Made by a program: the position numbers and the translations under genes
Origin: Dudresnaya verticillata
Taxonomy: Eukaryota
Length of the DNA: 64,000 bases
Reading direction: 5' to 3'
Assembly (NCBI GenBank): GCA_977862235.1
Contig: OZ374564.1
Location: 496,001 to 560,000 of the forward strand
Notes under the pieces: generated by a model
Database searches by the model: none
Seen by the model: only the letters and a program-made list of their open reading frames with translations
What the model was told of the DNA's origin: nothing
Shown: positions 2,309 to 64,000 of the stretch, one piece after another
Position numbering within the stretch: position 1 is the stretch's first letter
How the letters are laid out: each line of letters starts with the position of its first letter

Positions 2309-2354
<46 letters not shown>
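2309..2354. repeat. (CT)n microsatellite
   Basis: Uninterrupted CT run. Confidence 0.95.
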
Positions 2355-2356
<2 letters not shown>

Positions 2357-4230: not shown

Positions 4231-5697
4231 ATGCCGACACCCACTGCAGACATCGGCCTAATCGGCTTGGCCGTAATGGGTCAGAACCTCGTCCTCAACA
4301 TGAACGACCACGACTTTGTCGTAGCCGTGTTCAACCGCACCGTGTCCAAGGTCGACGCCTTCCTGTCCAATGAAGCCAAGGGCACCAAAATAATCGGCGC
4401 CCACTCCGTCAAGGAGCTGTGCGCACACCTCAAGCGCCCGCGCCGCGTCATGCTTCTCGTCAAGGCCGGCCCGGCTGTCGACGCCTTTATCGAACAGCTC
4501 ATCCCCCATCTGCAACCGGGCGACATCATCATCGACGGCGGCAACTCCCACTACCCGGACACCCAGCGCCGCACCCGCTACGTCGAGGAGAAGGGCCTGC
4601 TATATGTCGGGTCGGGCGTATCTGGCGGTGAGGAAGGCGCGCGTCACGGTCCAAGCCTAATGCCGGGCGGCTCGCCAGCCGCATGGGAAGCCATCAAACC
4701 CATCTTCCAAAGCGTCGCGGCCAAGTCTGACGGTGAACCATGCTGCGACTGGGTCGGCGGAGACGCCTCCGGTCACTACGTCAAAATGGTCCACAACGGC
4801 ATCGAGTATGGCGACATGCAGCTCATCTGCGAGGCCTACGCCCTCATGAAGCACGTCCTGCGCATGACCCCCGACGAGTGTGCCGACGTATTCGCCGAGT
4901 GGAACAAGGGCGAGTTGGACAGTTATCTCATCGAGATCACTGCCAACATCCTCCGCTTTAAGGATGACCGCGCTGATGATGACGCCCCCCTCGTCGACCG
5001 CATCGTCGACCGAGCCATGCAGAAGGGCACGGGCAAGTGGACCGTGCAGTCGTCTTTGGACGTCGCTGTTCCCGTCACCCTGATCTCTGAGGCCGTGTTC
5101 GCGCGCACCCTCTCGTCAATGAAGGAGGAGCGAGTTATCGCTGCAAAGTCGCTGCGCGGGCCGGACGACCTCCCCGCACCGGAAGACCGCGCCACTGTTC
5201 TCGAGGCCATCCGGCAAGCCTTGTATGCGTCGAAGATCGTATCGTACGCGCAAGGGTACATGCTGCTCCGCGCTGCAGCAAAGGAGAACTCTTGGGAGCT
5301 CAACTATGCTGGAATCGCGCTTATGTGGCGTGGCGGGTGCATTATCCGGTCGCGCTTCCTCGGAAACATTCGCGACGCTTACACGAAGAACTCGGACCTG
5401 ACTAATCTGCTGCTGGACGACTTTTTCAAGGACGCTGTGCACAAGGCGCAGGACGGGTGGAGGAAGACGATCTGCCTTGCAGCAACGAATGGCGTGCCTG
5501 TACCAACGTTTATGACGGCGCTCGCGTTTTATGATGGGTACCGTGCGGCGGTGTTGCCCGCCAACTTGCTACAGGCGCAAAGAGACTACTTTGGGGCACA
5601 TACTTACGAACGGACGGATAAGCCGAAGGGAGAATTCTTCCACTCGGACTGGACAGGGGAGGGTGGCAATGTCACTAGCAACGCTTACAACGCGTAA
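4231..5697 (+). CDS. gnd: 6-phosphogluconate dehydrogenase, decarboxylating (no transit peptide, probably cytosolic)
   Basis: IGLIGLAVMGQNL, IIDGGNS, GVSGGEEGARHGPSLMPGG, GHYVKMVHNGIEYGDMQ, LWRGGCIIRS-type motif (MWRGGCIIRS), QAQRDYFGAHTY; intronless, 488 aa. Confidence 0.99.
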   Translation: MPTPTADIGLIGLAVMGQNLVLNMNDHDFVVAVFNRTVSKVDAFLSNEAKGTKIIGAHSVKELCAHLKRPRRVMLLVKAGPAVDAFIEQLIPHLQPGDIIIDGGNSHYPDTQRRTRYVEEKGLLYVGSGVSGGEEGARHGPSLMPGGSPAAWEAIKPIFQSVAAKSDGEPCCDWVGGDASGHYVKMVHNGIEYGDMQLICEAYALMKHVLRMTPDECADVFAEWNKGELDSYLIEITANILRFKDDRADDDAPLVDRIVDRAMQKGTGKWTVQSSLDVAVPVTLISEAVFARTLSSMKEERVIAAKSLRGPDDLPAPEDRATVLEAIRQALYASKIVSYAQGYMLLRAAAKENSWELNYAGIALMWRGGCIIRSRFLGNIRDAYTKNSDLTNLLLDDFFKDAVHKAQDGWRKTICLAATNGVPVPTFMTALAFYDGYRAAVLPANLLQAQRDYFGAHTYERTDKPKGEFFHSDWTGEGGNVTSNAYNA

Positions 5698-32088: not shown

Positions 32089-32285
<197 letters not shown>

Positions 32286-32368
32286 CTCTCTGTTGGTTCT
32301 CTTTCTCTTCGCTCTTGGCGCTTTCTTGTCCTCTTTGTCCGAAGTTCTCGGGCGCTTCTGTTTCCGAC

Positions 32369-38421: not shown

Positions 38422-38901
38422 TCTGGTAAACAGAGGGGCATCAACCCTCGGGCCTAACACTTCGGTGCCAAGCTTGGAGTCGCGCCGAACCCGAGTAGCC
38501 TCACGCCTAGGACATCGGTGCCGACCGAGTCCACGTGAGCCTATCTGCTCGTGGACCTACGTGAACGCAGATCGACACCCGTTTACCAGTTCTACCGCGA
38601 GCTAGGTACGCTAACGCTAACCTATCTCTACTGTCTACCTTTTCCCTTTTCCTTTACCTTTTCCCTTTCCCTTTGGGTCCCTGCACCCTATCCTTTGCAG
38701 GGTGGTCTTCCGCACCGCGCCCGGACTGCGCGGGTGGCCTTACGATCAGGCCTTGCTTGTCCCTCCATCGGGACCTGTTTTGGTGGATTGTGAGTGCTCC
38801 ACACTTATTTGGTCTCCCGACCTAGAACGGGTCGAACCGATCTTTGCTCAGACTGTAAGAGCTTCGCTTTGCGTGGATACACACGCCTTCAAACCCTTGC
38901 C

Positions 38902-40803
38902 ATGTCGGAAAGTGGCTCCCAACGCGAGCTTCGTGCTCCCCCGGGTGTGCCGCCTCCTGTAGCGGCTTGGGTACGCCGTGTCAAGATTGACACCCTCGTA
39001 GCGGCTCGTAACGCCGCAAGCGACCTGCTCGAGACGCGACTAGCTGCACAAGCTGAAGTCGTCTCGAGCCAGAGTCGTGACCAGCTTGATGGTCTTTCCA
39101 AGAAGCTGGAGGCCCAGTTCAGGGCCGAACTTGAGAGCTCAGTACTCTCTTACCTTGGACCAGTCAAGGAGGACAACCGTCGACTCCTTGATGAGGTCAA
39201 GAACCTCAAGACGAGGATTGCTCCAATGGAAGCAGCTTCGCAGGCGAAGCCTGGGGGTGAAAACCCCCCGGCCGCGCCTGTGCCACCTATCGTGGCGCCG
39301 ACTTTGCCGGCAGATGCGCTGTTGTCGCCAGTGACAACTGAAGCGCTACGTCAGGCGGGGATTGACGTCCCGCAGGTGGACACGCTTGCGCGGGACACAC
39401 CACCCGTGGTCGCGGCGACAGTCGCCAAACCACCTGATAAAAGAGACGCAAAGTCTCCACCCCCACCCAGTGCCGACCGCAAGGCCGACGGGGCGGGTGA
39501 TCCGGATGAGGGTCCATCGTCATCTGACGATTCAGATGGCGGGTCCAAACGCCGGAAGGATAGACGCGATAAGCGTCGACGACGGAAGGACCGTCGTAAG
39601 AAGGGTTCACCTTCATCATCTTCGTCGTCGTCCTCCGATGAGAGGAGCGACGACGAAGAGGAGGAGCAATTCCTCGTCCCTGACCCGACCTTGGGTCCTC
39701 GGCAGCATGGTTTGAGTCGGTGGAAGCCGACCGATCATCGCTTCCAAGCGGTTTTCAATTACCGCGTGTACAGGCTGGAGAGACGCAGACAGAAGGTAAC
39801 CAAAACGGTTATCCACGACACTCACAAACGTGTCAAGATCTTGGAGGTTACCATGAAGGTCCACAAGTTCTCGGGTAAGGACCCGATCAAGGTCATCAGC
39901 TTCTTAGCTCGATGCAAGCGGGACTTCGACGTCGCGGACCTCTCGGAGGCAATGGCATTCGTCGCCCTGCCGTACATGTTGCTGAAACAAGCAAAGGAGG
40001 CTTATGAAGCCCAGGCAGGTCACTTCCGCCAAGGATATGGCCTTAGGAACTGGCCCGAAGCAGTTAACTGGTTGCTCAGGACGTATGCAACGAATGCGGC
40101 GATCCAGGAAGCAGTGTGCGAACTGCGGGAGGTCAAGCAGCTCCCTGGTGAGGCGGAGCAGGTGTACGCCACCAGACTGGACAAAGCAGTCACGAATTGT
40201 GGTGATGTTCACTCACCTTACGAGGTCTCCACGATGTATATCGAGGGATTCGTACCGCAAGTCAGGCCGTTGGTTCTCCAGGCCAGGGAGGATAACCCCC
40301 TGTTGAGCTATCATCAGCTCATTGCCCAGGCCCGTTCGCGATGCGAGGCACTTCGAGCCGCCCAAGGCTCCAAACCCATGAAGGGTGTTGCGTTCAAGCA
40401 ACAAATGGCAAGGAAAGTCCTTGCCATTGAGTCGGATAAAGACCCGACGAGCCACTACGGCAGTACTCTGCAAACGCAGACACGTGCCGGCACGGTTGAC
40501 TCCCGTGAGGAGGGATGTTTCCTCTTCGGTGGGTATAGTGAGGCCGATTCATCGGCCAAGCCCCCCACTGATATTCCCTCCGACCGGGAAGACGACCCGC
40601 TCTTCTACCAAGAGCACAGGAGGCAGGGTAGGTACCCACCTCCGCAGCGACGCGAGCTGCATCGGCCGCCGGGGAGACCCGGCAGGCCAGGCGATAGGGC
40701 TGTGTTTGGTGACTATCGCCTGCGTGGACCCCATGTGCAGATCATCTGCCATGGTTGCTACGTGGCGGGCGATCACATCAGCCCAGATTGCAAGTTGCCT
40801 TTG
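38902..40803 (+). pseudogene. gag: Gag polyprotein, cut by the insertion; resumes at 61871
   Basis: HKFSGKDPIKVISFL, WPEAVNWLLRTY, VKQLPGEAEQVYATRL, CHGCYVAGDHISPDC; the frame rejoins as CKLPL|ADIAQVV across the insertion. Confidence 0.85.
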
Positions 40804-41350
40804 AACACGCATTTGAGCGATTTCAGAATACGACTCTCGAAACAGACTGCAGTCGAATAGCTATTTTCTGATATCGTTGGAAAGGGGAGCGTCCCCTGAG
40901 TACGGTGGTGAAATTCGATTGGCTAACGGACCATTCCTTCCAAAGTTATGGCGGTTTGCGTGAATTTACCCAAAATATTTCCAGGTATTCTGAATTTCAA
41001 TTTCCTTGCGTCGATTTGGCCCGCGCGGCCCACTCCGCGGTCCGCACTGGGCCAAATTGGAAATTGCCGGCCCGCAGCATGCCCCTCGCCGCGCGCGCTG
41101 CATGCGCGCCGCATCGCCCATCTGGCCCGCCCCACGCGTGCTCGGCGCCGCCTGCAGACTACCCCGTCACCAGTTTTCGGCTTTCTGATGCAACGGGTGC
41201 ACTGTGCTGTGCGCGTCTGTGCACAAATCCGCACGCGACCGCATACAGACTGCCTCGTCACCCGCCGCCCCGCCCCGCCCCGCGACGCACAACTCCTTGG
41301 GCAAAACCTGCTGTCGCGGTTGCCCACCCTCGTGCACACCGTGGATCCCG
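40804..41350 (+). repeat. Left TIR (547 bp)
   Basis: Reverse complement of 61324-61870; about ten substitutions seen by eye; starts AACACGCATTTGAGCG. Confidence 0.95.
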
Positions 41351-41352
41351 AT

Positions 41353-41448
41353 TCTCAACTAACCCCTTTACTGTTCTTGCTACCTACACATCTGACCCAG
41401 CTGGGTCAGATGTGTAAGTAGCAAGAACAGTAAAGGGGTTGGTTGAGA
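41353..41448. repeat. 96-nt loopless palindrome
   Basis: Centre CCCAG|CTGGG at 41400/41401; two mismatched pairs. Confidence 0.95.
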
Positions 41449-42101: not shown

Positions 42102-42900
42102 ATGACGGGGTTTGTGCATGCGTTGACAGGGTCGGACCCAGAGCAAGTTCGGCTAATGTCAGAGGTGGTCGTCCTCGCTGGTCTACAGGACAGAGTTGTT
42201 GGTAGCGTGTCGAAGAAGGAGTCCCACCTGCAGGTGCACACACACCATGGTTTCAAACAACCTGCCGCTGCATCGTGCGTTCTCGGTGTTTTTGTTCGAT
42301 ACCAAGGGGCGCATGCTTCTCCAATAACGTTATTGCACTTAACGTTATTGCACGTAGATACCAAGGGGCGCATGCTTCTCCAATAACGTTATTGCACTTA
42401 ACGTTATTGCACGTACGTGCAGCGAAGAAAATCACCTTCCTGTCGTTCTGGACGAAAACTGTATGCGCTCATCCGCTCCACACGCCTGCTGAGCTTGTTC
42501 GGCAGGACAGTGGAGATGCGCTTGCAGGGGTCATGCGTGCTGCCATTCGGAAGCTGTCTCATGAGCTAGCTCGGTGTCAAAGAGGGAGAGGTCGGTATGG
42601 ACGACCTGCACTACATGACTCGCATTCATTACCGTGCTGAAAATGACGGAGGGGTGTGGGGTGAGCATGAGATTGATTACCTGTTCATGGGCGTGAAGGG
42701 CGTAGCGCTGTAGCGATATTGCTCCTGAACAAAACGACCTACGAGCAGTACGCTATGTCACTCGAGAAGAATTGAAGGGGCTTTTCAAGGAGGCGCAGAT
42801 TTCCTCGACTCTTCGTCTTACGCCTTGGTTCTACCACATTTTTGAGGGTTTTTCCTGGCCTTGGTGGGACAAGATGCTGAAGGGGGTATAAATGAACTCG
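42102..42900 (+). pseudogene. IDI: Isopentenyl-diphosphate delta-isomerase (type 1) fragment, frameshifted
   Basis: Across frames: DPEQVRLMSE, SKKESHL, LHRAFSVFLFD, KKITF..FWT..CAHPL, AAIRKLSHEL, MTRIHYRA, WGEHEIDY, LTPWF...WWD. Confidence 0.9.
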
Positions 42901-44292: not shown

Positions 44293-46505
44293 TTGAACAT
44301 AACTTTCGCCCTGCCCCCTGCGAGATATCAAAATTTCTCTCACGGAATGACATTGCTCACGGGTATGTTCTTCTTAACGCTCACTATCCTCTATGGAATA
44401 CGGCTGTTGAGACAAGGGCGCAGAAATATTACGCATGAGCAGGTTTGGGTCTTCTTCCTCGATCTCATGGCATTCCTCTCCTTCAACCCTCTTCATGCCA
44501 TCAACCGTCTCATAGAAACAAATGGTGGCGAAAGCACATTGGATTACAGTACCTTCCCGGATTGGTATAACAATTGGGATGTGGCCAATGATGTGCTGCG
44601 TGATGTGGCCTTTGCGGGATTCTCTTACTTCTACCTTTGGCCAAGCCTGCACTCTTACCGCATTCTGGAGGCCACTAAGCGATTGGGATGGGGCTTCTAT
44701 ATCCCAAAGTTGCTCGTGCTTATCCCGTACGTTGTCTCCAAGTTTGTGATTGTGTACGTGTTGGACATGACCCTGTCTGAAGTGTCTATGCTCTCAGCTG
44801 CTTCTTTCTCGTTCTACTTCAGCGCGTATCAGGTGTGGAGCCATTTGAAGGTAGAGCTCCTCCTCTGTATCCCGTTTTCAGTCATTGAATTGCTGTTCAT
44901 CGCAATTATTGGGTATGAGGCATGGAAGACAACCAATGTGTTGGAGAAGGCACCATACATGAAGCATCGGTGCAAACGGATTGGATACAGGTTTTTCCTG
45001 TATACCAAATTTGTTTTCTACCCTTTGTTTATTGGTCTGAACACTAGTCTGCTGTTTAGCAGACCGAAAGGTGAAAGTATCGTTCCTCTGGTTTTTGGCT
45101 TCAACATGGCGAGGGCAGATGTGATATGGATTTATACGCACGGCCCGGGGCTTTTGGTGCCGGGTTAACCCAGCACGTGACTACTTATGTTCATCTGCCC
45201 GATATTTGTACCGGGGGTGTGAACGCGTTTTTCAGAAGCGTAGAACTGGGCGAATCTGGGTCTCGATGGTCATTCAGCAGCTCAGACTCATCATCGAGTC
45301 AGCAAGCTTCGAAGAACGGCCTCAAGTACCCGTTGCCTGAAAAAGACGTCACATGAGCCCATGATGAAGAAACCCCCCGCTCTGTTGTTGACAATGATGA
45401 CGAATTAGAACAAGAAATCGTTGAACCGATTACGTACAGAAAGAGAGAGTCGAAGGACAGTCTTGAGCTGAAAGCAAACTGCTTTACGATGTAGACGCAC
45501 GTCATTATGTTCAACTTTGCATGGTATGTCTATTATTATGGGACTGCAAAGTTGGACGGCTTCATTCCTAGAGAAAAACCATTGCCATTTGAGTATGAGA
45601 TCATTGCTGCTGTGAGCATCGAGGCAACATATACTCAAGCACTTGTTGGTGATTGCAGTGACAGGATCATTGTGACGTTCAAGGGAACAACGTCAATGCG
45701 AAACTTGAAGACGTCATTACGGATGAGCCATGAATATATTCGTAATGTGGTGAAATCAAGTGTCTATGGTGAAGATGAGACGACTCGATTGAAGCGATTA
45801 TTCGGCAGAAGATATCTACACGGTAATATTCACAAGGGATTTGCGATTGCCTATAAGAGCGTTGCAGATGAAGTGATGGAAGTGGTGCGGCAATTAAGAG
45901 CAAGAAGATAAAGACCGGTCTTCTTGACCGGACACAGTCTAGGAGGTGCACTCGCAACAATCTGCAGCCTGGATCTATGTGTGAAGTTGGATGTGAGCCG
46001 ACGTGAAATTTTCGTGTCCACGTTTGGATCACCTCGAGTCGGGAATCACGACTTTGCAGGAGTGTACAAAGAAGTGGTGCCTCTGCACTGGCGCATAGTT
46101 GTGGATGCAGACATGGTTGCCAAGTTACCAAACGTGGGGTACACTCACCTCGGGAAGAAGGTGGTGCTGACTCCGCACGGAGAGATGATTATCGACCCCA
46201 ACGCATTGGAACAGCGGCCATGGACAGGTGAGACGGCCGGTTTTGCATATCACCGCAAGGCGAGCTACATGCTTGCAATGCGGGCATGGAGCGTAAGGAA
46301 TCACGGGATGACATACACACCCGTATTCTGGCCGTTCCCGGTGCGACCCGAGGACAAGCGGCGGTTCGCTGGGGCGTTCCCAGAGGAGGAAGATGCGGCT
46401 GGGCGCAGGGTGGCTTCTAAGATCATTCGCATGGACGCGATGGGGGATGCACCTAGCGCAGGGGACACGGAACTGGCGAATATGAATACAGCAGCACAGA
46501 AATGA
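44293..46505 (+). pseudogene. Multi-pass membrane region (TMEM181-like) fused to a class-3 lipase, with several stops
   Basis: Hydrophobic helices with EQVWV...FNP; then IIVTFKGT, IHKGF, TGHSLGGALAT, TFGSPRVGN, DMVAKLP; broken into at least three ORFs. Confidence 0.85.
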
Positions 46506-47621
46506 AACAGAAACAGCCTCTAGTCCCGCGCTTGAAATAAACGTTAGGCAAGCTGTAGTAGAGGAGTCCTAAATGCATCCCCAGATCACGCAGTCAGCTT
46601 TGCTCGCGATGCGAAGACTTCGAGCCTGTCATGTACAGCATTCTCGTTATGTATTGTGTAGCACTGCAGTGAACGTGAGTGATGCAAGCGCTCGAGGTCT
46701 CCTGGTCTACAAGTCAGAACTCAGGTGCCCCAGGGTATTGTTGGACAATAATAGAGCTCTCCCATTCGCTGCTGATTCTGAGACTCCCACCCGGAAGTGC
46801 GGGTGGTGCAGGGATCCCGAGTCACTCATCACTGTGATTCCAATTCAAGGGTATGGAACCCGGCACTCAGATGATGCTTTCGCTACAGCTATGTATTACA
46901 ATACACCGGTAATACTAGTACAAGGTCCGAATCGTGGTGAACCGTGCACGGTGCACATGGACAGCGCATAATATCACCAGTCGTTCTGATTCCACTTCAC
47001 AAGCAGAATACTTGCCACAAATCGGTGACCGACTGCCTGCAGCCCACACATGTTCCGAAAGCATACCGGGGGACCAGACAATATTGTAATTAGGGGACGA
47101 AGAAACGCCTCCTTTAAGTGGGTCAGACGACTAACGATAGGTAGACCGTTGCTCACTCACTGGTGATTCCGTTTCGCATATGCACACAAAACAGCATAGG
47201 AGGTTATCTGGCGAGGTTTCAGCACGTGACACCACTCCGGCGCCCACTGCGTTCTCTTCCCGATATTCTTGTTCCACCGCGCTGCGCTGACCGCCGCCAA
47301 AGGCCGCTTTTGACCTCCCACCCTTTCTTTTCTCACGATCGTGCGACGCGTACTCAAAAGCGCTATTGACGGCACTGATCCCAGCGAGACGAGGCCCTTA
47401 CTGCTATCGTGGTACAAAATGCCTCGCACAAGAGAACGTCGCACTGCTTTGCGTCAAAGGCCGGTCACTGCCGACCGACATGCCGTCTCCGTGATGGGAG
47501 GGACCAATTCCTCAGCCAAGACTGTATCGGTAAGGCGACGGCGGAGACGGCCGCGGAAGAACCCATTCGCAAACAGGGGGGCGGAAGCGCGTCCGCAGTA
47601 ACCAGCCCTGGCACGCAAATC

Positions 47622-48158
47622 ATGTCAGCGTCGAAGAAAGTAGTGCTGTTGCTGAACGGAGAGGAGGTGGGTATGGCTGATCCAATGACTCCGGCGTCTC
47701 CGGAAGAGGCAGACAGTACAGGTTCATTCAAAGTTAAGATGCATGGAACGTGGTTAAGAGAGGTGCAGCGGAAGAAGGAGACATGGATAGTCATCTATAA
47801 TGTCCGTATTCGGAATGGACATGGGGACAAGAGGTACATGTATAAGTATCCCGGTATAGAGTCTCCCCCCACCACTCTAGCTGGTCTAAATGTGGGTATT
47901 CATGTATGGGACAGGGAGCAAGTCCGCACTGTGAAGCCGCAACCTACAAGCGGTGCTGGAGAAGCCGGCGTGGCGACCGGGGAAGCTTGCCCTCGGATAG
48001 AAATGGAGCAACCGAATGGGAGGCACACTGTTCGTGCCCGGACGTCAACTAGGCGGTCAGGCCGTAGGGAGGGTCGGGGACTTGCTCATAAGCGGACAGT
48101 GACGAAAAAAATCACATGTACCGGTCAGTCTGATACCAGCGCTCAGCCACACCAGTAA
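47622..48158 (+). CDS. Element-encoded ORF in front of the transposase (possibly its first exon); shares a domain with the methyltransferase C-terminus
   Basis: VVLLLNGEEVGMA...MHGTWLRE...YMYKYPGIESPPTTLAGLN...VWD. Confidence 0.55.
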   Translation: MSASKKVVLLLNGEEVGMADPMTPASPEEADSTGSFKVKMHGTWLREVQRKKETWIVIYNVRIRNGHGDKRYMYKYPGIESPPTTLAGLNVGIHVWDREQVRTVKPQPTSGAGEAGVATGEACPRIEMEQPNGRHTVRARTSTRRSGRREGRGLAHKRTVTKKITCTGQSDTSAQPHQ

Positions 48159-48220
48159 GGTAATGACCGCACTACTACACAGCCAGCAACACACGTGTTC
48201 CGTCTACACCCCCGGCTGCA

Positions 48221-50900
48221 ATGGCAGGTGAGCCTTCTACACCCCCTGCTGCTGCAGTTGCTCAGACCGCGTTGGTTTATACCCCGGAGCGTCCCGCCCG
48301 TATGTGCCCGCGGCCGTACCAATTAGAGGGCAAAGAAAACACAGAAGCTGGGTTATCAAAACTGGAAAGTAATGACGCGGCGCCGCGTGGGAGCGCTCCA
48401 AAACCACCCGACGCTGAACGGGAGAAAGTAGAATCCGAGAACGGCGCACAAGAAGACAATGATCCCGTCGACACTACAGCATAAGCATGTGCGGGAGGTC
48501 GTGATCACGCTTCTGAAGAAGAGCATCCTGACGTCGGGACTGCAGACGATGGGGAGGATGCTGATTCCGACACGCTGGAATGCCACCCCTCCGAAGGGGA
48601 GGAGATGGCACTAGAAGGGCGTGGAGGCGGCCGGGCTAGTGCTAGGACGAGCGGGAAGAGGAATTATAGACATGATGCTCGTCCGAAAGGAACACCATCG
48701 GGGCATTTGATGGCTACGAAGTGGAGAAAGGTAGTGGAGGTTATGGAGATGTAGGATATCTCAAACATTTTCTGCTGCCAAACGAAACAATGCTTCGGAA
48801 CCATCGAGTCAGTCTACATCAGGGCTGAGTCACGCAAAATGATGGACAAGAATCCCACGGAAAGGAAGCGATACCTCACGGGACTACTGGAATCCAACTC
48901 CAACATGTACTTCTTCAGCGGGCGGCCGGTTTGTTACTCATCTCTGGACAAGGCTTTCGTTTTCTCTAGAGACCTGCAGTCGGCGGTGAAAGGAACGAAC
49001 AAGAGCCGCGAAAGGAAAGGGAGGGGGCTCATAGTTGGTGGTACTTCTACGGAACAGATGGAGGTGATAACGTCGTTCTTGGAGCGCCTCGCAGAAGTGT
49101 CTGGTGATTCGCAACCAGACAAGGCTGAAATCCACCTCCCCTTCCATGAGAAGCTCGAATTCTATAACACGTTTGTGACTGAGCACCGCACTCTGTACCC
49201 TAACAGAGCAACACCATCACAGAGCTACTTTTATAGTATCTGGCTCCGCAGCTGTCCGCAGATTAAGGTCAGGCGAACTCACCGGTTTGCAAAATGTCCC
49301 GAGTGTGAGGAGATCAAAGCTCTTCTCTCAAAAGCGGCAACGGATCTAGCGGGAACCGAAGAGCTTCGCGAGCGGCGGGCAAGGTACGTGATAATGTTCA
49401 TGCCGGAGCGAACAGAATATCGCAAGAAGTGTGAGATGGCTTCGATGTATCCGAGGAACTATTGCTCACTCATCATCGACGGTGCTGACCAGTCCGCATT
49501 TGGACTGCCACACTTCCACATCAAGGTGAAGGACACACGCGGACACGGAATGAAGGCCAAAGTAATCGGCGTTTTAGAGCATGGCCAAGTCCCACATCTA
49601 AACCTTTTCACGATGACTGCCGAGTTCGAAACAGGCGGAAACCATGTCATCGAAGCTTTGCATCGCGTATTGATGGCACGCAGAGACAGGATGCCACTGA
49701 AGGGTACTTTGTTCCCCCAGGTCCACAACTGTACTAGGGAAAATAAGAACAGGTTTATGTTCGGCTACTTGGAGTATCTCGTTGCTATGGGTGTATTTCC
49801 GGAAGTGCATGCGTCGTTTCTCCCCATCGGTCACACGCATGCCGATATCGATCAAGTTTTCAGCTGCATTTCGAAGAGATTACACGTTCGAGACGCCATT
49901 ATCATGGACGACCTCATGCACGAACTACGGCTATCATACACTCCTCAACCGCGTGTCACGGAGATGTTGCACATTATAAATTTCGAGATGTTGCACATTA
50001 TAAATTTCTCCGGGTTGTGCAAAGAGACCAGATGCCTCGGGTGTACAGAGCCCATTTAAGAATATCGGTACTTTCGGTTCAGTGCGGAAGGAGTCAAGGA
50101 CACAGACACCGGTACGTTCAAGACTCTCTGCGAAGTGAAGAGGGGCTGCAAAGACTCTTGGAAACCGTTACATACGCGAGATGGCCAGGGGGGATTTTTG
50201 TTATTTCCCCCCAACCTGCACCGGACTCCACCGACTCCCTGTCGAGCACCGCCAGATGAACACGAAGTAACGAAGCGTCTACGATCCGCCGAGACCAGAA
50301 TCAACAATCACAGTAAGCTACAGAAGCTGTTGGCACTTCGTGATAGAGTTTACGAGGACCGTGAAGACCCATTCCACTGGGCATTGGCGGATGTGTTTGA
50401 GTTGGAAGGGGCTTACAAACCGGATGGGAGCGGCCCTAGCGCACTCTCGGAATCGGGGTCAGACGCTGAGAATGTAATGGAACAGGACATCACTTACACA
50501 AAGAACAGCTTTGTAGCCGTACTATGCGACGACTGTACCGAAGGATGCCCGTTCTGGCTTGGGCAGGTGATGAATTGGGAGACGGCCGGGGGGGCAAGGT
50601 TACCAATTTGCAAGTAGAGTGGTACGAGAGAAGGAGTACTCGAGGGAATACTTTCACCGGGCGTTATCGGAAGGCGAGAATAACCGATGGAAAAATGGAC
50701 ATGTCAAACCGTGGAGCGATACGGTCCCGAGGAAGTCGGTTTTAGTGGATTTCGCGCGTTTAACCAACTCTGGAATACCCGTCAAAGTGCAGCGAAAGAT
50801 CAGGGAAGCCCTAGAGATGCGAAAGAGAGGACAAAATCCGGAAATTAGTACTTCTGTAGAGGCGGGGGGACCAGGAGAAAATGGCATGCAAAGCAAATAG
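48221..50900 (+). pseudogene. DDD/E-type transposase, Sola-like/DUF7869-type, decayed
   Basis: One frame from 48221 to about 50590 with stops at 48482, 48752 and 50057; CCQTKQC, FAKCPEC, IIDGADQ, QVHNCTRENKN, FLPIGHTHADIDQVFS; frameshifted tail FVAV...PFWLGQV...WYE...PWSDTV. Confidence 0.8.
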
Positions 50901-51610
50901 CTTGGGGTGAGAGGGAGGCGAAGCAGGAATAAAGTGGTGTCGCTAGTGGCAAAATGGGGTCAAGATGCTGGGCGAGAATTGGGAAAGGGTTAGAGTATTT
51001 TTGTACAATCACAGTCGTGTTATAAACAACTTTAATGCCTGCAGCATGCCAAAGAAGTGAGCATAACAGACCCACTGGTCTCTCTTCTGCACTGATACAG
51101 CATGCAGTTTCGGCTTTGTATCAACCACACGGGTCGTGATTAACGCGTCCGACCTGCCAAATCGTACCATGCACACTTTGGGTGCGATCACGCCGCGGCA
51201 CCCGCGGGTGTACCCAAGTGAACGGATCGCTCTACCCAATACCTCCATAACTGGCGGCATGGAGGTTCCCACGGGCTTTGAGAACGGCTCTCCCGCCATG
51301 ATTTTTGTTAGTCTGCAGACGCAGAATCCGGCACCAATGTTCGCAGGAAATGGGGCGGGCCACATGAATTGTGAGCGAGTCCGCGTGATAGTTCAGATGC
51401 TTTCTGATCTCGGGCCCGGTGCTGTACTTTTGTCGGGGGATGAACAAAGGCTTGCAGTCGAAGCAGCCATGGACATGACCGAAACTGTTTTATATGCCAA
51501 TGGGAAGAACTCGCAGGGGCTCGCGAGCCCGACATCCCGAGCTCCGCTTCTCGCTGCGCAAGAAATTCATCTAGCTCAATCAGATCGTTAAGGTAATGTT
51601 CGCGGACCAG

Positions 51611-52770
51611 TCAGTCCGCGAGGGTGAGCTCCTCTTCGTTGCTTTGTTCAACTTCTGCTGAAGTATTCGACAGTTCCAGTCCGATGTCTCCCCAATCAAT
51701 ACCTCCAACTTCAGCTCCTTCTGCACCTGCAGTAACGTCCTCATTCTCGATAGGATCGGGAGGGGCCATTACTTCTTCTGCACCCATACCAGAGGTATCA
51801 ATCTCGATTCCCCAGTCAACTTCTGCGTCCCCAGCCGACTCTTCGCCAGTTCTGCCGTCAAGCAAAACCTCGATAATGCCCCAATTGACGTCTTCAATCT
51901 CGGAATCCGGCTGCGTTTCTTCCCTAACCTGCTTAGCCGCCCTGCTCAATGTGGAATCATCTCCGTCGATTACCCGTCTCGATGTGGTACATAACCCGTC
52001 GCCATTTCTTGCAGTCGCCCCATCGCTGCCTCCAACATACCTTTGCGAACTTTTGATAGTAATCCACAGCTGCGATGAACTTCTCATCTTTCGCTCTGTC
52101 CACGGCCGCCGCAAGTAATTCCGGACCGCGCTTCTCAACAGCCGCGGCAAGGAGGCTATGATAGTCCACGTCGCCCTCTTCTGGTCGGGCAAACTCCTCG
52201 CAAGCAATTCGGAATCGATCTTCTGCGTCAGCAGCAGCGCATACGGCGGGCGCATCACGGTGAGCATACTCGGCGACATCGGCATGCAAGCTGTCAATAG
52301 CGGCCTTGATAGCAGGGGCCTCGACATCTGCATTGCGTGTGAGCACTTGTGCGCAGTCGGCAAGGAACACATGCTTTCTTGGAAGGCGCTAACGGCGTCT
52401 GACAATGCCCGCGCAGTATCACCCTTGTATCGACCGAGGAGGACCTTATCCTGTCAAGCAAGCCACTCCGAAGGTGCATCCGCAGCGGTGACGGCGGCAA
52501 GGATGTCCATGGCCCGGAAGTAAGGTAGCGGCGCGGCGGTCGCCAATGGTAGTTCCAGATTTAGGTGGGTGCCCTGCGCCCCGCTGCTGCGCCGGCGCGT
52601 GCAAATAGCTAGGGCCTAGGCCCTCACGCGATACCGCCGGCTTTCTGGAAAGGGTCCGCCACAAGCGGCTATAGAAAGGTTTCGACGCGATGCGGCGGCG
52701 GTCGGTGTGCGGGGCGCGTCTGGCGAGGAGCTTCCTGGACGGAAATCCGGCAGTGCTGTGTGGGTCAAGT
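51611..52770 (-). pseudogene. CDK5RAP3: CDK5RAP3/C53 N-terminal fragment, frameshifted
   Basis: SRKLL, LPYFRAMDIL, LLGRYKG, LADCAQVLTRNADVEAPAIK, then an acidic region with DVNWG, EVDWG and GIDWG motifs. Confidence 0.8.
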
Positions 52771-53461
52771 CGAGAGGGGAGGATGGACCCGCCAAGTAGT
52801 GCGGGTGAATGCGGTAGCGGACGAGCAATTTTGTCGGCGGGTGTGGTGTAGGCGACAAGTGCGACGCAGGCACATGCGCAGAACGGCGATTGCGCTTGGC
52901 AGCGTGCGGGCGCAACGAAGGATGGCGTGATGGTGTGTGCGGCGGCTTTGGTGCACGTTTGTGAGATTGTGCTAGGTATGCCGTCAAAGCGACCGCTGGG
53001 CTTGACTTTGGTGCAGACCTGTGCCCGCATCCCACGGCACGTTGGGCGAAGCAAGATGAAAATGCATCGCAGTAAGAAGTCGTTTACGTAGAAATAATGA
53101 CAGACACGGCCAGCACGTTCGGCGTGAAGTGGGCGCAGCCAATGCTGCCAATGTGTGCAATAACAACACACCGCAACACAAAGCGCACCGGCACGTCGGC
53201 ACGGGAAGCGGGGGCGTGCATAACTTGCGCGGTGACCGCGTGGAGGGTTGATGTGGTGAGGTTGCGGTGCGTGGAGACATGCTCCGCAGCAGGCGGGTGA
53301 ACAGCAACCGGATAGCTAATTCAGTGAGACTTCCGCCGGAGCTATCGGCGCATATGGATATTTTTTGTAGCTCCCTGTCGCCGACAGATTCGAAAAGCTA
53401 TTTTCTTAGGTTTCCCATCTCGGCGACTATGGGAGCTATGTAGCTAACGGAATGCCGCGAG

Positions 53462-53563
53462 TGTAAATATCTATTTTCTTACGTATTTTGATTTCGGGAA
53501 ACACGGGAGCTATGTAGCTCCCGCAGAGGAGGAAATCAAAAAGCTAAGAAAATAGATATTACA
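53462..53563. repeat. Imperfect palindrome of about 100 nt inside the element
   Basis: aatatctattttctta/taagaaaatagatatt, ttttgatttc/gaaatcaaaa, core cgggagcta-tg-tagctcccg. Confidence 0.85.
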
Positions 53564-54628
53564 TTTCTCCAGCGCCATTAGCTATTGGCTGATATCCATA
53601 TTCGTTTATAGCTTTTCACTTTGTTCCTCCGGCGTTTGCTACTTTTCCCGAGACGCCCAGCCGCACCGCTCCGAGCCCGACATCATCTGAAAACGCACTG
53701 CCACTCAAGAAAACGCATACCACACAACACCAGCGCCCTTGACAAGGGCAGCACACGACTGGAACCCTTTTCACAGCGTAGGTCGAGCCCTCGCCCCCGC
53801 CCCGTCCCCACTGCTTCCTCTCTTCGCATCCGGTGTCGTGCTCGGTTTAGCGCTCGCTGCAGATGATGGCTGCGTGGGCGGCGACTTTGTTCCGCTTGGA
53901 GGGTCCGTCGGCGTCGGTGCTTGTGATGTTTGTCGTGTGTAGCCGCCAGGGATTTTCGGCCGTGCGCGGCCGTGCGCAGCCATAGCCGAAAGAGACGATG
54001 GCAATCTGCATAGGACGCCTGTCAGCTGCATACACTACGAGCTGTGATAGCCCAACGCCTGGATATGAGGGAGGCCCCGCAGCCCTCCGCATGGAACGAG
54101 ACGAGATGGGAGCGCATAAAGTCCATGGCGGGCTGGCCACCGACGATGCGAGTCTGGCCGGCGCCCGGGGGGCGACGTCTAGCAGGAAGACGGGGCAGTC
54201 TGCATAGTTGCGCGCAAACATGAGTTCCTTGCGCGTGCCGCGAAGGGAGAGACAAGCGTTGCTGCTGTGATGGAAACCATGCGCTTGCTGAAGAAAACAA
54301 CTGGCATCGAAAACTTTGAGAAGGCGACCAGTGGGCATGATGCTGAAAGTAGAGGAAAGCGAGAGTTGCTACTGCGACTGGTTGCAGACGATGTTTTACG
54401 CGTTGTTGATGAGCTGAGAGACTTGCAGAAGGTAGCTTCATAGATGATGAGAATCACCCAATGCACACGGAGGGCATGCAGCCGTTTCATGTTTCACGGC
54501 GTTTGGTCGCGACGAGCGTACATGGATGCCATAGTTCCTTCCAGCTGGAAATGTGCAGTGGACCGTCCGCCGCCCTCGACTGGCAGAACGTGCATCCGGT
54601 ATAGCCCAAAAATAGATGGAGCAGACTT

Positions 54629-57559
54629 TTATGGCTCTCTATCACAACCCTCCATCATGTGAAGATCCCATGCGAAGAATGCGTTTAAGTCTCGCAGCAG
54701 TGCTGGCGGTTCCTCCGGACCCTTAAAAGTGTACTTATACGGCCTCTCCGCGAACTCATCGCGAACTTTGAAGGAAAATACAGCCACGAGATGCTCTCCC
54801 TCCTTGCCGAGCTCCCGCAACCCGTGCTGGTGTATTTCTGTCTTCAGTCCGTGGGCGTCGTTACCCGATTGCAGTACTGCCTTCCCAACCTTATCTGGAC
54901 CACACAGCAGCCAAACTGCGTCACCACCTTTGAGTTGCGGTCGATCGCATGATAGCCTTTTCTGCCTAGGTTTTCCTGTACGTTTCCCAGACTGTTGCTT
55001 ACCTGGGGACATCATTAGAGTCTTTGATTCCCTTTCAGACTGATCAGTGCGTACCCTCTTCGTGTCTGGCTGTTTGTCTATCTGTTTTGCCGAACGCTTC
55101 TGTGCTTGGATCCCTGCATCTTGAGACGACCCGTTCTGCTCCTCCTCTGCCATGCGGTGCAGGCGTGCACGAGCCAGTCTGTATGTTTCCGGGTTTCTTT
55201 CGACAAGGTAACACTCTCTGTCTGTCCGAACGCAGGCAATGCCTGTAGTCATTGTCCCCGCATGATAGTCTAGGACCGAGCCGCCTTCAGGGCAGAAGGT
55301 TGTGATGATCTCAGTAAGTGCATCAGGATTTTTCTCCTCTGTCAGAACTGGTGCCCTGCTAGTCCCTGGCTTCATGAGCTTATCTCTGGGTACGGGAACA
55401 GAGGTCATCACAGCAAACTTTCGTCGCTCCTTACACGAGATGAAGTGGTACGGGCTGGAGAGGTCTGGAGAGAAAGCGTTCTTGGATGTACCCTTGCGCC
55501 TTCCGAAGGCTGCTGCCTCAGCCCCATTCTGCAGTCTCTTCTTGCGACTTATCTGGACAGTAGTTGTGTCTTTGCAGAGTAAGAAAGGGTACTGCGGACT
55601 ATCAAAATTGTTGTCGGCAAGTGCCTTTTGAAACAACGGGAATTTCAAGAAGCTGCAGAACAGAAACACCCAACCACCCTCCTTCACAACACGTCCACAA
55701 AACTCGCAAAGGCGCTTCATGTCTTCTTCACTGAAATGGTTTGCGTATGCAGTTCCAGCAATTGACATTCCCTTCGGGGTACCATACGGAGGGTCAGCAA
55801 GCACGAGGTCAAAGAGAGGACTGCATTCATTCCTGATTGATTGGTCATATTCCTCCCACTTCATCTGATATGTTCGTATCCTGCATTTGGAAAGCGGGTC
55901 CTTCTCCTGCACATCAGAACCGGTATCCAGTCTCTCCGACTTGCGTGTTGAAGAAACAGAACGACTACCCGGTCCAATACACTCGTTCGGGATGTCATTA
56001 TTACCAGCTAATGCGCCTGTGTCGTTGTCGTCTGTAGGATCCAGGACCGATTGCGTATTCTGCCTCTGCGTGTCAGTTACAGTCTCCTTAACGGCTTCCG
56101 ACTGCTTTTGGTCACCAACGGCCCCCTTAGAGTCTTTTCCTTTCCCCCCTTGAGGTTTTCTATCAACTTCAGAGCTCGTGTTATCAATATCAGAAGCTGA
56201 AACTATTGGCTTCTCATTTTCTCCTATGTCTGGAGATGTATCTTTCCCAGAATCAGTTTAGGCTTGGAACTGGTGCTTGAATTTCTTTTCCTTACCTGGA
56301 GCTTGTTGCGGGCATTCCCTTCGATAAGCGGCTATCATTGGTTTGAGCACATCGTGGTCATTTCCGAAGTTTGCACGCACCTCGTGGTACAGCTTCGTTG
56401 AGTGAAGGAGGTTCTGGCGAATGACGTTCATACCTTCAGGCCAACTCTGGCTCTCGATAAGGCGTTCCAATTTCCGTGCTTCCTTCATTGCTGCTTTCGC
56501 CCTTCCAAATTGTTCCAGAGTCTGAAAGCTGGTGACTGACCGGAAACTCTGAAGTCGATGTACTTCGCGTAGTCGGTACAAAGTTGAAATCTGTATTTCT
56601 ACGCCATCCTCCAGTTTGTTCCCATTCATGAAGGCGATTGCAGACTTCAGTGATGAAATGTGGATGAACTTTCTGTAGACTCGGCAGTCAATTATTCTCA
56701 TTGCTCCGTCCTTGTCGAGTGTTGTCCCTTCCTTGTCTCCTGTCATCTTTGCAGCTAGATCCGGTCTCTCCTCATTTGCAATTTGTCCAATTGCGTGAAT
56801 TACTCTCGTATCCAACCGCATAACTGTCTGAGCAGTCTGTTTAATGGTGTTGTTCCGATATAACTTCGAACCGTCATACGCCTCCGCAATTTTTGGGGCA
56901 TTTGGTTGTTTCCCAGTCTTGGCCTGCAACCTCTCCGCCTCCTCCCGCAGACCGCGGACCAGGTCAAAAAATGTAGTCTCGATAAAGTATCCCTGGTCGT
57001 GTTTCTCATTCTGATGTCTTGCCAGCTGCCGGAGCTCATGGACGTTGTGCCCACCCTTCAAAATCGTTACAGGCCATGCGAAAGACTGCCAGACTGTTGG
57101 GAACTCCTCCATTAACTCCAAAATAACGCAATGTCTATGCAAGCCGTCAACAATGCCGTACCATTTGGAGCGATTGTTTGCCTTCTCCAAAGCCTTCTCC
57201 TCCGTGCACTCCTTCCCTTCCCCTTTCATATTCTTGAAATACGCAACGACGTGACCCCGCAGAGACCCTGTCATTTCGATGACAATTGCAGAGTCAGACC
57301 CCGCAACGTACCCAATAGTCCCTTCACCGCCTTTCTTCTCTGATGAGTGCAGATGAATGCGAGCTTTGAGGCGTTCCACTCCGGAGCGCACCACGGGTCT
57401 TATTGCTGTTAGCGGGAAGTACGCCCTGGGGTCAATTCTCATATTCACGGAACCCTCCATAACGTCAGAAAACAATGCCCTCCCCATGCTTGCAGAAGAG
57501 CAATTTTGGTCCGCTTCAGATTGCGTAACAGAACCCTTTCCTGAACGTTTCTTGCCCAT
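54629..57559 (-). pseudogene. ParB-like domain fused to a beta-class N6-adenine/N4-cytosine DNA methyltransferase; one in-frame stop
   Basis: ORFs 57616-56258 and 55912-54629 share a frame and the 115 codons between them are open; only TAA 56258-56260 interrupts. ParB-like YGIVDGLHRH; MTase DLVLADPPYG precedes EEKNP...GSVLDYHAGTMTTGIAC...R.CYLVE. Confidence 0.85.
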
Positions 57560-58693
57560 CCAGCCAAAAATGTAATTCAGCACTTTTGAAAAAACGGTCG
57601 CCGTAAGTCTTTCCAACTGGTTGCCGAAGGTGTTTCCAACTGGTTGCGTTAAGCTGATGAGAACGGGATAGGCGTTGCGGTTTCCACGAAGAGCACTTCG
57701 GGTTTACAACAATATGTCCGTAGTCAGGTCAGTGGTCACGGCATTGAAAGACAATATATATCATGCCGGTTTCCAGCTTTAACCTGGAAACGAAGTTTGT
57801 CCGCATGACTAACAGCCTCACGTACGGTTTTAACTTTGCCGGAAAGATAGTTAGAGCACTGTACCACTGGTGGTGCCCTGATACATTCCGCGAGATTACA
57901 TGAAGCTACAAATCACTGCAGGGTTCTATTGGTCGTCGGTAAATATATCGACGTATTGTGCCGTAGGGGTGTTCGCCCTAAGTTCGTACTTTCTCAGAAA
58001 ATATTTGGAAGTCAGTTCTAACCATCCAACCGTACAGTGATTCCGATTCACAGCTGCCCTACTAGGGTATCTAAACGATGCTCAAGGCGGGTAAGAAATG
58101 GGCATACGAAATAGTTCCACAACGTGGAGGGGAAATTGGAAGTTCGTGTGCCTGCGTAGGCACACTCCCTTGGACTGGGGGTGATGTGGACGATTCGCAA
58201 ACGTACAGTCATTCCGATTGTACCAACCTGAAGGTGTTCCTCAGAAACGATAGGAATAGCCTCGGGTTTTCGAATTGGCAAGAGGTTACGGTCCGCCCAC
58301 ACAGAGTCGTTTAACATTGACATTTCCTGAAACCTGCGCCTCCACCCTGCAGATATGGTCATCATAAGACCTCTGCAGCACCGAAACAAACTGATGATCA
58401 CAATCTGCCATCGGATGCCACGACAAACGTAAGTATGCGTGTTACCCAATGATGCAAGTAATATCAAGGTCAGGGAAATGATTAATACCATACGTGAGAC
58501 CATAATACAGCCTGTACCAGTGTGTCCAAGTGATCCCTGTAAATACGTTCCAGAATTGTGCACAGGTCAACATGTCCTCGTTCTAGCAATACAGAAAAGC
58601 CCTATTCTGCGGAGGTTTAGACAGTCTGATCTGCGGTTCCACCTAATATCTGGGCGGTGTATGTGAACTATCCAGCAGCTTGAGGCTGCATTT

Positions 58694-61323: not shown

Positions 61324-61870
61324 CGGGATCCACGGTGTGCACGCGGGTGGGCAACCGCGACAGCAGGTTTTGCCCAAGGAGTTGTGCGTCGCGGGGCGGG
61401 GCAGGGCGGCGGGTGACGAGGCAGTCTGTATGCGGTCGCGTGCGGATTTGTGCACAGACGCGCACAGTACAGTGCACCCGTTGCACCAGAAAGCCGAAAA
61501 CTGGTGACGGGGTAGTCTGCAGGCGGCGCCGAGCACGCGCGGGGCGGGCCAGATGGGCGATGCGGCGCGCATGCAGCGCGCGCGGCGAGGGGCATGCTGC
61601 GGGCCGGCAATTTCCAATTTGGCCCAGTGCGGACCGCGGAGTGGGCCGCGCGGGCCAAATCGACGCAAGGAAATTGAAATTCAGAATACCTGGAAATATT
61701 TTGGGTAAATTCACGCAAACCGCCATAACTTTCGAAGGAATGGTCCGTTAGCCAATCGAATTTCACCACCGTACTCAGGGGACGCTCCCATTTCCAACGA
61801 TATCAGAAAATATCTATTCGACTGCCGTCTGTTTCGAAAGTCGTATTCTGAAATCGCTCAAATGCGTGTT
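61324..61870 (-). repeat. Right TIR (547 bp)
   Basis: Reverse complement of 40804-41350; ends CGCTCAAATGCGTGTT. Confidence 0.95.
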
Positions 61871-62015
61871 TTTGGCAGACATTGCCCAAGTAGTTGTGAA
61901 CTACAACAAGTTGTCTGCTAAGGACAAGACCGTGTCTGCTGACTCATACATGAAGTCACTGGCACTGCTGAACTTCCAGGCCAATTAGTCCCTCAAAGAG
62001 GACGGGAGTGCCCAG

Positions 62016-63461
62016 GTGGGGCAAGCTCCCTCGGGGTTTCAGCACCCCACCCTGCATGCTGCTCAGACCAATGACCAAGTGAAGGCCGACCCAAAAAAAC
62101 TAAGGGTCCCTGGCGGTTTCGAGACCACAACGTTAGATCCTTACGGATCTAAGCGCATATTGACGCACAACGGGGTTGCTGGTGATACAACCGACAACCC
62201 ACCGCATGAAGCGGCTGCCCTTCGCCGACCTTGGCATCGAAGCCGAGATCGACGTGGGTTTGCGGAGACCGATCCGCTTTGTAGCCTCTCAAGGAGTAAC
62301 TACAAGGTCTATGCCGACGTAGGCACCAGACCATCGATGCTCGTGAGGTTGTTGACTATCCTCGACACCGGGGCAGGACCAAACTTTGTCCGCGCCGACG
62401 TCCTGCCAAAGGACCACGAGAAGCTCATTAAGAAGAGCGACAATCTGCCAGGTGTCTCTGACGCGAATGGCAAGCCCTTGAAGCTCCTGGGCCATGTGTC
62501 TCTTTGCGTGAGACTTGGAACACGAACGGTTAACACCACGTTCCTTGTTTGCGAAAGACTCGCAGCGCCCATGATTCTGGGTTGCCATTTCAATGATCGC
62601 TTCGTTGAGGCGATTTTTCCTCGCAAGCGTGTGGTCGAGCTCGACGACGGGACCCAAGTTCCGATTGTCCGGAAGCCGATTGCTCGTTTGCAAGGCGCGC
62701 CCCCGATGCCCGGAGCATCCAAGGATGAGACCGAAGTAAACGGTCGAGCTTCACCGAAGCTCAAGGTGACGAGAACAGTCACGATACCGGCCGGTACACA
62801 GGCCTGGGCCCATTTAACCAATGGACGACTTGGGCTCTCAATACTCGAGCCATCTCCCGCGTTGTACGACAACCATCAGTTGGTCATGTCCAACGACGTG
62901 GTGCACATAAAACCCCTTCGGGAGTTTAAAGTGCTTGTGGCGAACTTCTCTTCACATGAGAAGCGCCTGCAGCGGAACCAAGTAATTGGTTCGGTGCTGC
63001 TACACCCAAGGGCGTTAGTCTCCACCGTGGTGGAACTAGACCGGCTCTTGGCGGTTGAGTTTCAAGACTCACAACCAGTTGCGCCTAGCACGGCGCTTGA
63101 GAAGGGGGAGGTGACAAATCCCCAGGACGGCGAAGGCGATCCAGTTGACGCCGTCCCCCTTGACCATTTGGAACCTGGTCTACAGCGCAGCGTTCGAAAC
63201 ATGCTGCGCCCGTTTGCGTCCATGTGGAACGGCCGCCTCTGAGAGATCCGGGTGACGACGCATCTAATTGAGCTCAAGGAAGTCTCGAGGCCCTGCCGAA
63301 GTCAACCATATCGGGCAGAACCTAAGGCTCGTGAGTTCGAAGAGCAAACGGTGCGCGAAATGGAAGCGCAAGGAGTAATCTCCAAGTCCCAGTCAGAGTG
63401 GGCGTCGCCAGTCGTCTTTGCTCTCAAGCACGACGGCACGTTGCGGTTTTGTGTTGACTAT
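62016..63461 (+). pseudogene. pol: Pol fragment: aspartic protease and start of reverse transcriptase
   Basis: ILDTGAGPNF, MILGCHF; TGA at 63240-63242; HLIEL, QPYR, SEWASPVV, DGTLRFCVDY, after which RT similarity ends abruptly. Confidence 0.9.
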
Positions 63462-63810
63462 CCATCAGACCAGCCATCAGGAACCGGAGACGGTTCGGAC
63501 GGTGGATTTGACAGCCCAGCGAGCACCACCACGCCGCCTGGCCACATGGGAGGAAATCAGATCCTCACCCGCGCAAGCGGCCGCTTTGGCTCATGCCAAC
63601 CAGTCTGAGCTTCAGCGCCCTCGAGAGGTCGTGACCGAACGACTTGAAAGAGCGCGAGACGCTCCCCGACGCAATGCTTCCAAACCCAGCGTCATCCCAG
63701 ACCCAACAGGATCGACCAGCTCCATGGCCTTCGACATGACTCTTTTCGAGTCTCCCATCAAGCTATCAGCACCGATGGAGACGCCTACCAGCGTCACGCC
63801 CGCGGGCCGC

Positions 63811-64000
63811 GACGAGGAATTCGTCATCGAATCCATGCTCTCACATGGTGAGAATAACGATGGAGACCCGATGTTCAGGGTCAAGTTGTATGGCTACCCC
63901 GTCGCAGAGGCGACGTGGGAACCAGCCCACCACATTGACTATAATACTGTCACACGTTACTGTCGGCGGAAGAAACTCCGCATACCGGATCCTGCCCTTT
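63811..64000 (+). pseudogene. Chromodomain at the end of pol (not listed in the ORF track)
   Basis: Manual translation: DEEFVIESMLSH...MFRVKLYGYPVAEATWEPAHHI. Confidence 0.8.

Follow-up and report, generated by a model that had tools for sequence, protein, structure and literature searches.

The DNA analysed here (the window) is a stretch of 64,000 nucleotides of Dudresnaya verticillata (contig OZ374564.1 of GenBank assembly GCA_977862235.1, positions 496,001 to 560,000 of the forward strand), and all positions below are counted within it. In this window, we describe a decayed transposon of Sola1 type, about 21 kb long and bounded by terminal inverted repeats (TIRs), in which homologous copies of a small, putatively barrel-shaped domain stand at the N-terminus of the transposase and at the C-terminus of a ParB-like DNA methylase protein. 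Our preferred reading, to which we give a probability of about one half, is that the domain serves both enzymes of this element as a common targeting module. Algal transposons with DNA-modifying enzymes of their own are a recent discovery; a conserved module that transposase and methylase have in common gives a first tangible lead on how such an enzyme is tied to transposition. The sharing of the domain is real and conserved, and it has apparently not been described before for elements of this newly recognised kind, of which the present copy is dead.

The two copies in the window are, by their sequences, homologous. BLASTP of the open reading frame (ORF) at 47409-48158 (+) against that at 54629-55912 (-) gave 44.7 bits (E 8e-10) with 18 identities in 62 residues (29%). 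A preliminary description of this DNA had placed the same domain of about 90 residues in a transposase-proximal ORF and at the methyltransferase C-terminus, and had proposed a pairwise alignment with shuffling statistics as a check; local alignment of segments of about 100 residues reached a score of 100, against a mean of 24.6 (standard deviation 4.2) for shuffles of one segment (z 17.8), and none of 5000 shuffles attained it. Profiles from which the window was excluded recovered both copies as well, that of 25 methylase-linked copies giving 83.8 bits on the transposase-side segment and that of 11 transposase-linked copies 60.5 bits on the methylase C-terminus, so that the earlier claim is upheld at the positions first given, including the start at 47622, where there is a likely ATG. 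A sequence search yielded three relatives of the methylase, 35-41% identical, that retain the C-terminal segment; when they are aligned with the two window copies in five rows, the alignment extends over about 95 residues, and 13 of its columns are invariant (V, L, L, V, A, H, Y, Y, G, P, L, W and D). The domain itself runs from about 47634 to 47930 (+) in one copy and from about 54650 to 54940 (-) in the other. No other copy was found in the window at E≤1 in a six-frame scan of 1619 pieces, and tblastn concurred.

Comparison with relatives alters the view of the gene that carries the first copy. The core matches PF25273 (DUF7869) with E 2e-41 and a score of 142 bits, where the cut-off is 26. 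We take this family to be the Sola1 transposase core; a mention of DUF7869 in the literature was not found. Four relatives (P0064, P0070, P0074 and P0078) are colinear with the window over the core (48536/48758-50608), and the N-terminal domain of full-length relatives matches 47622-47930, with 44% identity over 57 residues in P0074; the domain stands at the transposase N-terminus in six such relatives (P0040, P0054, P0064, P0070, P0074 and P0078). The transposase-proximal ORF does bear the domain, as had been noted, but it is not a separate gene: the colinear full-length relatives show it to be the first part of the transposase gene itself. That gene has since been damaged in several places. 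Its frame changes in the acidic linker and again near 50600, an in-frame TAG lies at 48752, and a 24-bp tandem duplication (49961-50008) is followed by an in-frame TAA at 50057. Among the acidic motifs that may hold catalytic residues, DGADQ and GHTHADIDQ are present, and the D of DNCxRENKN, which is kept in six of seven relatives, is replaced by H. A Cys-rich region precedes the core. A second conserved stretch, of the type FVAV..KFWIA..L.I.W, lies at the transposase C-terminus (50060-50900 (+); alignment columns 1100-1219 in relatives) and may form a further small barrel; the window sequence reads FVAVLCDD..PFWLGQV..LQVEWY there.

The second copy ends a 995-codon frame in which the only stops are at codon 453 and at the end. 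Relatives of 940-1120 residues (P0018, P0028, P0068 and others) align along 57481-54650 (-), P0018 (967 residues, E 8e-157) and P0028 (1042 residues, E 9e-158) being colinear with it; as judged from these alignments, the methylase ORF forms the 3' half of a single gene, whose product joins a ParB-like part, a helix-turn-helix (HTH), a PF01555 methylase and the shared domain. The first 452 residues were confidently modelled, with a predicted local distance difference test score (pLDDT) of 82.2 and a predicted template modelling score (pTM) of 0.79. In VIA-align, the eight top rows for this model were all of the ParB/sulfiredoxin type, namely PadC (Z 8.8, root-mean-square deviation (rmsd) 2.8, 97 residues aligned), ParB-N of pNOB8 (Z 8.7, rmsd 4.1, 213 aligned), KorB (7.5), sulfiredoxin (7.0 and 6.3), SerK (6.7), SbnI (5.7) and Atu1540 (5.6), and rows for TetR and sigma HTH structures cover residues 213-277; the predicted fold is a ParB-like N-domain followed by an HTH. 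The sequence trace of ParB is a DGxHR-like motif (IVDGLHR) only: no Pfam family matched the 452-residue part at E≤0.1, and none was found among 16 relatives at E≤1. An AIPR hit of the ESM Atlas for the N-terminal part (0.91) was a lead only and was left unused, the ParB fold resting on the structural comparison.

The methylase core matches PF01555 over ORF residues 35-247 with E 2.5e-12; the score is 47.6 bits, the cut-off being 26.7, and the match takes in positions 2-219 of the 221 in the profile. Motif IV, ADPPYG at residues 39-44, precedes the S-adenosylmethionine (AdoMet) motif LDYHAGT near residue 210, and both are intact. From the D in DPPY, which points to adenine specificity, and from the nearest PDB sequences, those of the adenine methylases DpnA (5hek, E 4.9e-14) and CcrM (6pbd, E 1.8e-7), we infer that the enzyme is adenine-specific. 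Among 16 aligned methylase proteins the AdoMet motif is kept, and motif IV is DPPY in eight and degenerate in the other eight (DPPC, DPPS, DPAY, DPGC, QAPV, DLPF, EPPS and QVPR). A candidate 66-nucleotide intron (CAG|GTAAGG..CTCCAG) that would remove the in-frame TAA was rejected, as the conserved KE.K[FY] residues would be lost with it. For each of the five relatives nearest to the N-terminal part, an ORF of its own is called, about 500 residues long and ending in the same linker, so there may be an intron or a split specific to the subfamily.

The model of the methylase-side copy is confident (pLDDT 85.9, pTM 0.77) and beta-rich, with five strands. When it was compared with 48,161 chains by VIA-align, the top rows were small SH3-like barrels at Z 4.0-4.7, a range below the level that the tool calls meaningful and one that may reflect merely a common arrangement; these rows include the Tudor domain of PHF19 (4.7, rmsd 3.3, 56 aligned), Tbtudor (4.5), KOW (4.5), the PWWP domain of MSH6 (4.4), the BAH domain of Rsc2 (4.3) and CAP-Gly (4.3), with chromo domains also near the top. 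Foldseek placed eL27 and PWWP1 of NSD2 first, at E 0.18, and PWWP1 domains of NSD2/3 within E 0.18-1. The model suggests, tentatively, a small barrel of the SH3/Tudor/PWWP class, and the domain has a conserved loop of the form Y-P-Y..P-G.E.P-P..L-G-D. The proposed likeness to the C-terminal domain of En/Spm Tnp1 was not borne out, in that neither segment matched a Pfam family at E≤0.1, no family was common to 53 members of the domain even at E≤5, and the model is weakly SH3-like. A sequence search of the PDB with the domain profile reached E 0.48 at best (a metacaspase), which is not meaningful. Clusters of CBM_48 type in the ESM Atlas (0.93-0.95), of low recognition, were a lead only and were not used.

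The domain family is unannotated, comprises about 150 representative clusters and has no Pfam model; it could be used for finding elements of this kind. When 1.84 billion representatives were searched with the domain profile, 161 proteins matched at E≤1e-3, and for 47 the match was as strong as E≤1e-10; 150 of the 161 matches were listed, and two of those listed, P0086 (bacterial SprB/PKD) and P0147 (leucine-rich repeats), are unrelated repeat proteins. In 30 long matches, Pfam found PF01555 in 13, always with the domain C-terminal, DUF7869 in 6, always with the domain at about residues 2-110 and the core at about 510-815, and no relevant family in 11; six further methylase fragments were found among 26 additional matches. 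By BLAST against the window cores, 26 of 154 accepted matches were methylase-linked, 15 transposase-linked and none both, the remaining 113 (mostly short fragments) being unlabelled. A tree of 38 labelled copies unites 11 of the 12 transposase-linked ones, all those from outside the window, in one clade (SH-like approximate likelihood ratio test (SH-aLRT) 98), and the protein-type labels change twice on it, against 10.3 times in shuffles, none of 500 shuffles being as low.

A third protein family is headed by the same domain, followed by more than 1000 residues in which Pfam finds nothing (P0057, P0111, P0113 and P0144, of 1200-1377 residues; further members are P0043, P0066, P0096, P0098, P0123 and P0127). 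A D-G-x-H-R motif is invariant in this family and suggests another ParB/DndB-like protein; in P0096, where the motif reads VDGHHR, there is also a weak match to DndB (E 0.0025). Comparison of the third family with the methylase proteins by hhalign reported the shared domain as the sole match, and a PDB sequence search with P0111 returned nothing.

The pairing of the two genes appears to be old. With a transposase alignment, 60 metagenome loci were retrieved, and in three of these (L002, L005 and L010) a methylase homologue adjoins the transposase, the ParB-like methylase gene lying head-to-head with the Sola1 transposase gene, whereas the two are tail-to-tail in the window; in L002 the genes lie at 338-3319 (-) and 5248-7989 (+), and motif IV of the methylase is degenerate. 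A locus search with another alignment gave 294 pattern matches, none of which was confirmed. The view that the methyltransferase is a long-standing part of the element rather than recent cargo, put forward in the preliminary description, gains support from these three loci, from the many diverged carriers, from the arrangement of the tree by protein type and from the pairing published in 2025 for Sola1-1_Ec32 of Ectocarpus (PMC12477816), by which the gene pair was already known.

How might a module common to both proteins act? We propose that the barrel reads a ligand, as its SH3/Tudor/PWWP-like shape and the invariant H, Y, Y, W and D suggest, and that it would direct the transposase and the methylase alike to one and the same feature of DNA or chromatin. 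By way of the same ligand, the transposase would act where the methylase marks DNA, so that marking would coincide with cutting or integration; the common place might be some favoured type of chromatin or else the ends of the element itself. The shared module, its reader-like predicted shape and the invariant residues lead us to infer, reasonably in our view, that the two enzymes may be co-targeted. Such a module predicts a common ligand, which could be found with a small, foldable domain of 95 residues, and if this ligand proved to be methylated DNA or a mark on chromatin, the way in which a cut-and-paste element selects or labels its sites would become visible.

Several observations weigh against common targeting. 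The sister lineage formed by L002, L005 and L010 bears no trace of the shared domain on either gene and yet keeps the pairing, for which the domain is therefore not needed, and the domain also occurs on the third family. The window transposase copy lies on a long branch outside the transposase clade and scores higher with the methylase profile (83.8 bits) than with the transposase profile (47.0 bits); the history is thus not that of a single clean duplication, and probably included strong divergence or one or more additional exchanges. Because no chain among the 48,161 reached Z≥5 with the domain model and no Foldseek row reached E≤0.001, the fold matches are weak and the class of the barrel stays tentative. 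In addition, the partner may be inactive as a methylase in many lineages, given the degeneracy of motif IV in half of the proteins aligned, and nothing can be said of activity in the present copy, as both of its genes are damaged.

Other explanations of the shared domain have to be set beside common targeting. A protein-protein interaction module, which would form homo- or hetero-oligomers and let both enzymes act as one complex, would suit the presence of the same module on both partners of a conserved gene pair, and many small barrels of such a shape bind peptides (as the SH3 and CAP-Gly rows recall). We nevertheless hold it to be unlikely, since the copies are 24-29% identical within the element and each is closer to copies on its own kind of protein, since the domain is also found on the third family, and since no analysis supports an interface; a complex prediction of the two window domains scored 0.00 and gives no verdict, the partner's own fold being uncertain in that run. 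We see no better prospects for a sequence-specific DNA-binding module that would recognise internal repeats of the element, in the manner of the end-binding domains of transposases, with the methylase marking the element's own ends only. Contact with nucleic acid is within the reach of KOW, PWWP and Tudor-like barrels, and the authors of the Ectocarpus paper, in its available parts, propose that the transposon is bound and modified by the accessory protein it encodes (PMC12477816), but a ParB-like domain and an HTH are already at hand for DNA binding, a Cys-rich region of the transposase precedes its core, and no repeated motif common to both ends of the element was found apart from the TIR. 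That the resemblance arose by chance, or by a recent local copying between the two genes, is extremely improbable: the low pairwise identity (29% over 62 residues) and nothing else speaks for it, and the shuffles, the window-free profiles and the recurrence of both placements in many diverged clusters speak against it.

A bolder proposal, which we regard as rather improbable and rank below the interaction and DNA-binding modules, is that the barrel reads N6-methyladenine written by the element's own methylase, on or near the element, in a circuit of writing, reading and cutting. Were it so, the methylase would spread or maintain the mark by reading it, the transposase would recognise 'self' DNA by the same mark, and a eukaryotic cut-and-paste transposon would possess an epigenetic self-tag.

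The element measures 21,067 bp between the outer ends of its TIRs (Table 1). The 4-bp target-site duplication (TSD) and TIRs of Sola1-type elements are represented by TTTG on each side of a 98% inverted repeat of 547 bp; a 4-bp match of this kind is expected by chance about once in 256, and the TSD of Sola1-1_Ec32 is likewise given as 4 bp in the available part of the supplement of PMC12477816. No shorter inverted repeat was found near the two genes besides the 547-bp pair.

Table 1. Features of the Sola1-type element and its two main genes (positions within the window)
Feature	Position	Strand	Basis
Left putative TSD copy, TTTG	40800..40803		read directly; precedes left arm
Left TIR, 547 bp, starts AACACG	40804..41350	+	98.2% identity to reverse complement of 61324-61870
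Sola1-type (DUF7869) transposase gene, decayed	47622..50900	+	PF25273; colinearity with relatives
Shared barrel-like domain (tentative class), ~95 residues, copy 1	about 47622..47945	+	transposase N-terminus; BLASTP, shuffles, profiles
995-codon gene: ParB-like / HTH / N6_N4 methylase / shared domain	54629..57616	-	single frame, one in-frame TAA
Shared barrel-like domain (tentative class), ~95 residues, copy 2	about 54632..54940	-	methylase-protein C-terminus; BLASTP, shuffles, profiles, model
Beta-class DNA methylase core (PF01555), motif IV DPPY and AdoMet motif LDYHAGT	55172..55810	-	Pfam, motifs
In-frame TAA at start of variable linker	56258..56260	-	frame reading; follows conserved KE.K[FY]
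Predicted ParB/sulfiredoxin-like N-domain (motif WYGIVDGLHR), then HTH and helical region	56261..57616	-	model, structural matches
Right TIR, 547 bp	61324..61870	-	inverted-repeat match to left TIR
Right putative TSD copy, TTTG	61871..61874		read directly after right arm (as reverse complement)

Within the element, a palindrome of 96 bp (41353-41448), with two 48-nucleotide arms that are 96% complementary and have no spacer, lies immediately inside the left TIR. At 42298-42415 there is a perfect 59-bp tandem duplication, in which TAACGTTATTGCAC occurs four times and the palindrome CAATAACGTTATTG is also present; in the window, TAACGTTATTGCAC is confined to 42319-42412, with 6 matches at up to 2 mismatches where 0.3 were expected. 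Between the left TIR and the transposase, a class-3 lipase-like gene in three ORF pieces (44293-46505 (+)), the last of which matches PF01764 with E 4e-19, may be captured cargo.

The window has a eukaryotic appearance, and long ORFs in it encode 6-phosphogluconate dehydrogenase, phosphofructokinase, an LSM14 protein, a CorA transporter, and reverse-transcriptase and gag-like sequences. Retroelement sequence seems to adjoin the insertion: a gag-like ORF (38794-40860 (+)) enters the left TIR, a reverse-transcriptase ORF lies at 34585-36117, and beyond the right TIR an ORF at 62016-63999 (+) has a weak chromodomain match (E 4.8e-5, under the Pfam cut-off). Long simple-repeat arrays with periods of 2-6 bp are common to 32090-32315 and 2305-2354.

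Among known systems, the predicted five-stranded barrel weakly resembles the small readers of the Royal family and other SH3-like readers (Tudor, PWWP, chromo, BAH and Agenet), and invariant aromatic residues (Y, Y and W) stand beside D and H in its sequence; it differs from Royal-family readers in having no Pfam sequence match, in its greater length (about 95 residues) and in the Y-P-Y..P-G.E.P-P..L-G-D loop. The methylase N4CMT of bdelloid rotifers is reportedly fused to a C-terminal chromatin-reader barrel, a chromodomain. N4C enzymes carry an SPPY-type motif, and the motif here is DPPY. The rotifer enzyme is not known to have a partner transposase with the same reader. N4CMT is, like the enzyme described here, a bacterial-type methylase of the PF01555 class in a eukaryote, but, according to the available parts of its description, it belongs to the host and not to a transposon, and uses N4-methylcytosine to silence transposons (PMC8885841).

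The available portion of a 2026 preprint on Dam methylases deals with retrotransposons and has no mention of transposases or PF01555, and that of Iyer et al. (2016), which treats Group-1 methylases (DpnA/M.MboIIA-type), describes no clade of eukaryotes in which these methylases accompany a Sola transposase or are fused to ParB. A closer parallel is the red-algal Plavaka, a DNA transposon in which PAG2 is a PF01555 methylase and PAG3 a ParB-like protein and for which binding and modifying of its own DNA has also been proposed; unlike the present element, it belongs to the EnSpm/Plavaka superfamily, its methylase is fused to SET and its ParB to a 2OG oxygenase in separate genes, and the accessible text reports no module common to the accessory genes and the transposase (bioRxiv 10.1101/2025.02.11.637652). 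A domain common to transposase and methylase was not found described in the literature to the extent that its text was available, and the Ectocarpus paper was the only one found to mention Sola1, methyltransferase and ParB together (PMC12477816). In its available parts, the description of Sola1-1_Ec32, which we compared with the window by its published features, makes no mention of a domain shared by transposase and accessory protein (PMC12477816). Sola1-1_Ec32 (21,549 bp) has the termini AACCG..CGGTT and an imperfect TIR of 282 bp, against AACACG and a TIR of 547 bp here (PMC12477816). It is nonetheless the nearest counterpart of the window element as far as its published description reaches: both are giant Sola-1 DNA transposons with long TIRs, a 4-bp TSD and termini that start with AAC, both carry on the opposite strand a gene for a ParB-like and DNA-methylase protein (1104 residues in Ectocarpus), and the transposase, often pseudogenised there, is decayed here (PMC12477816).

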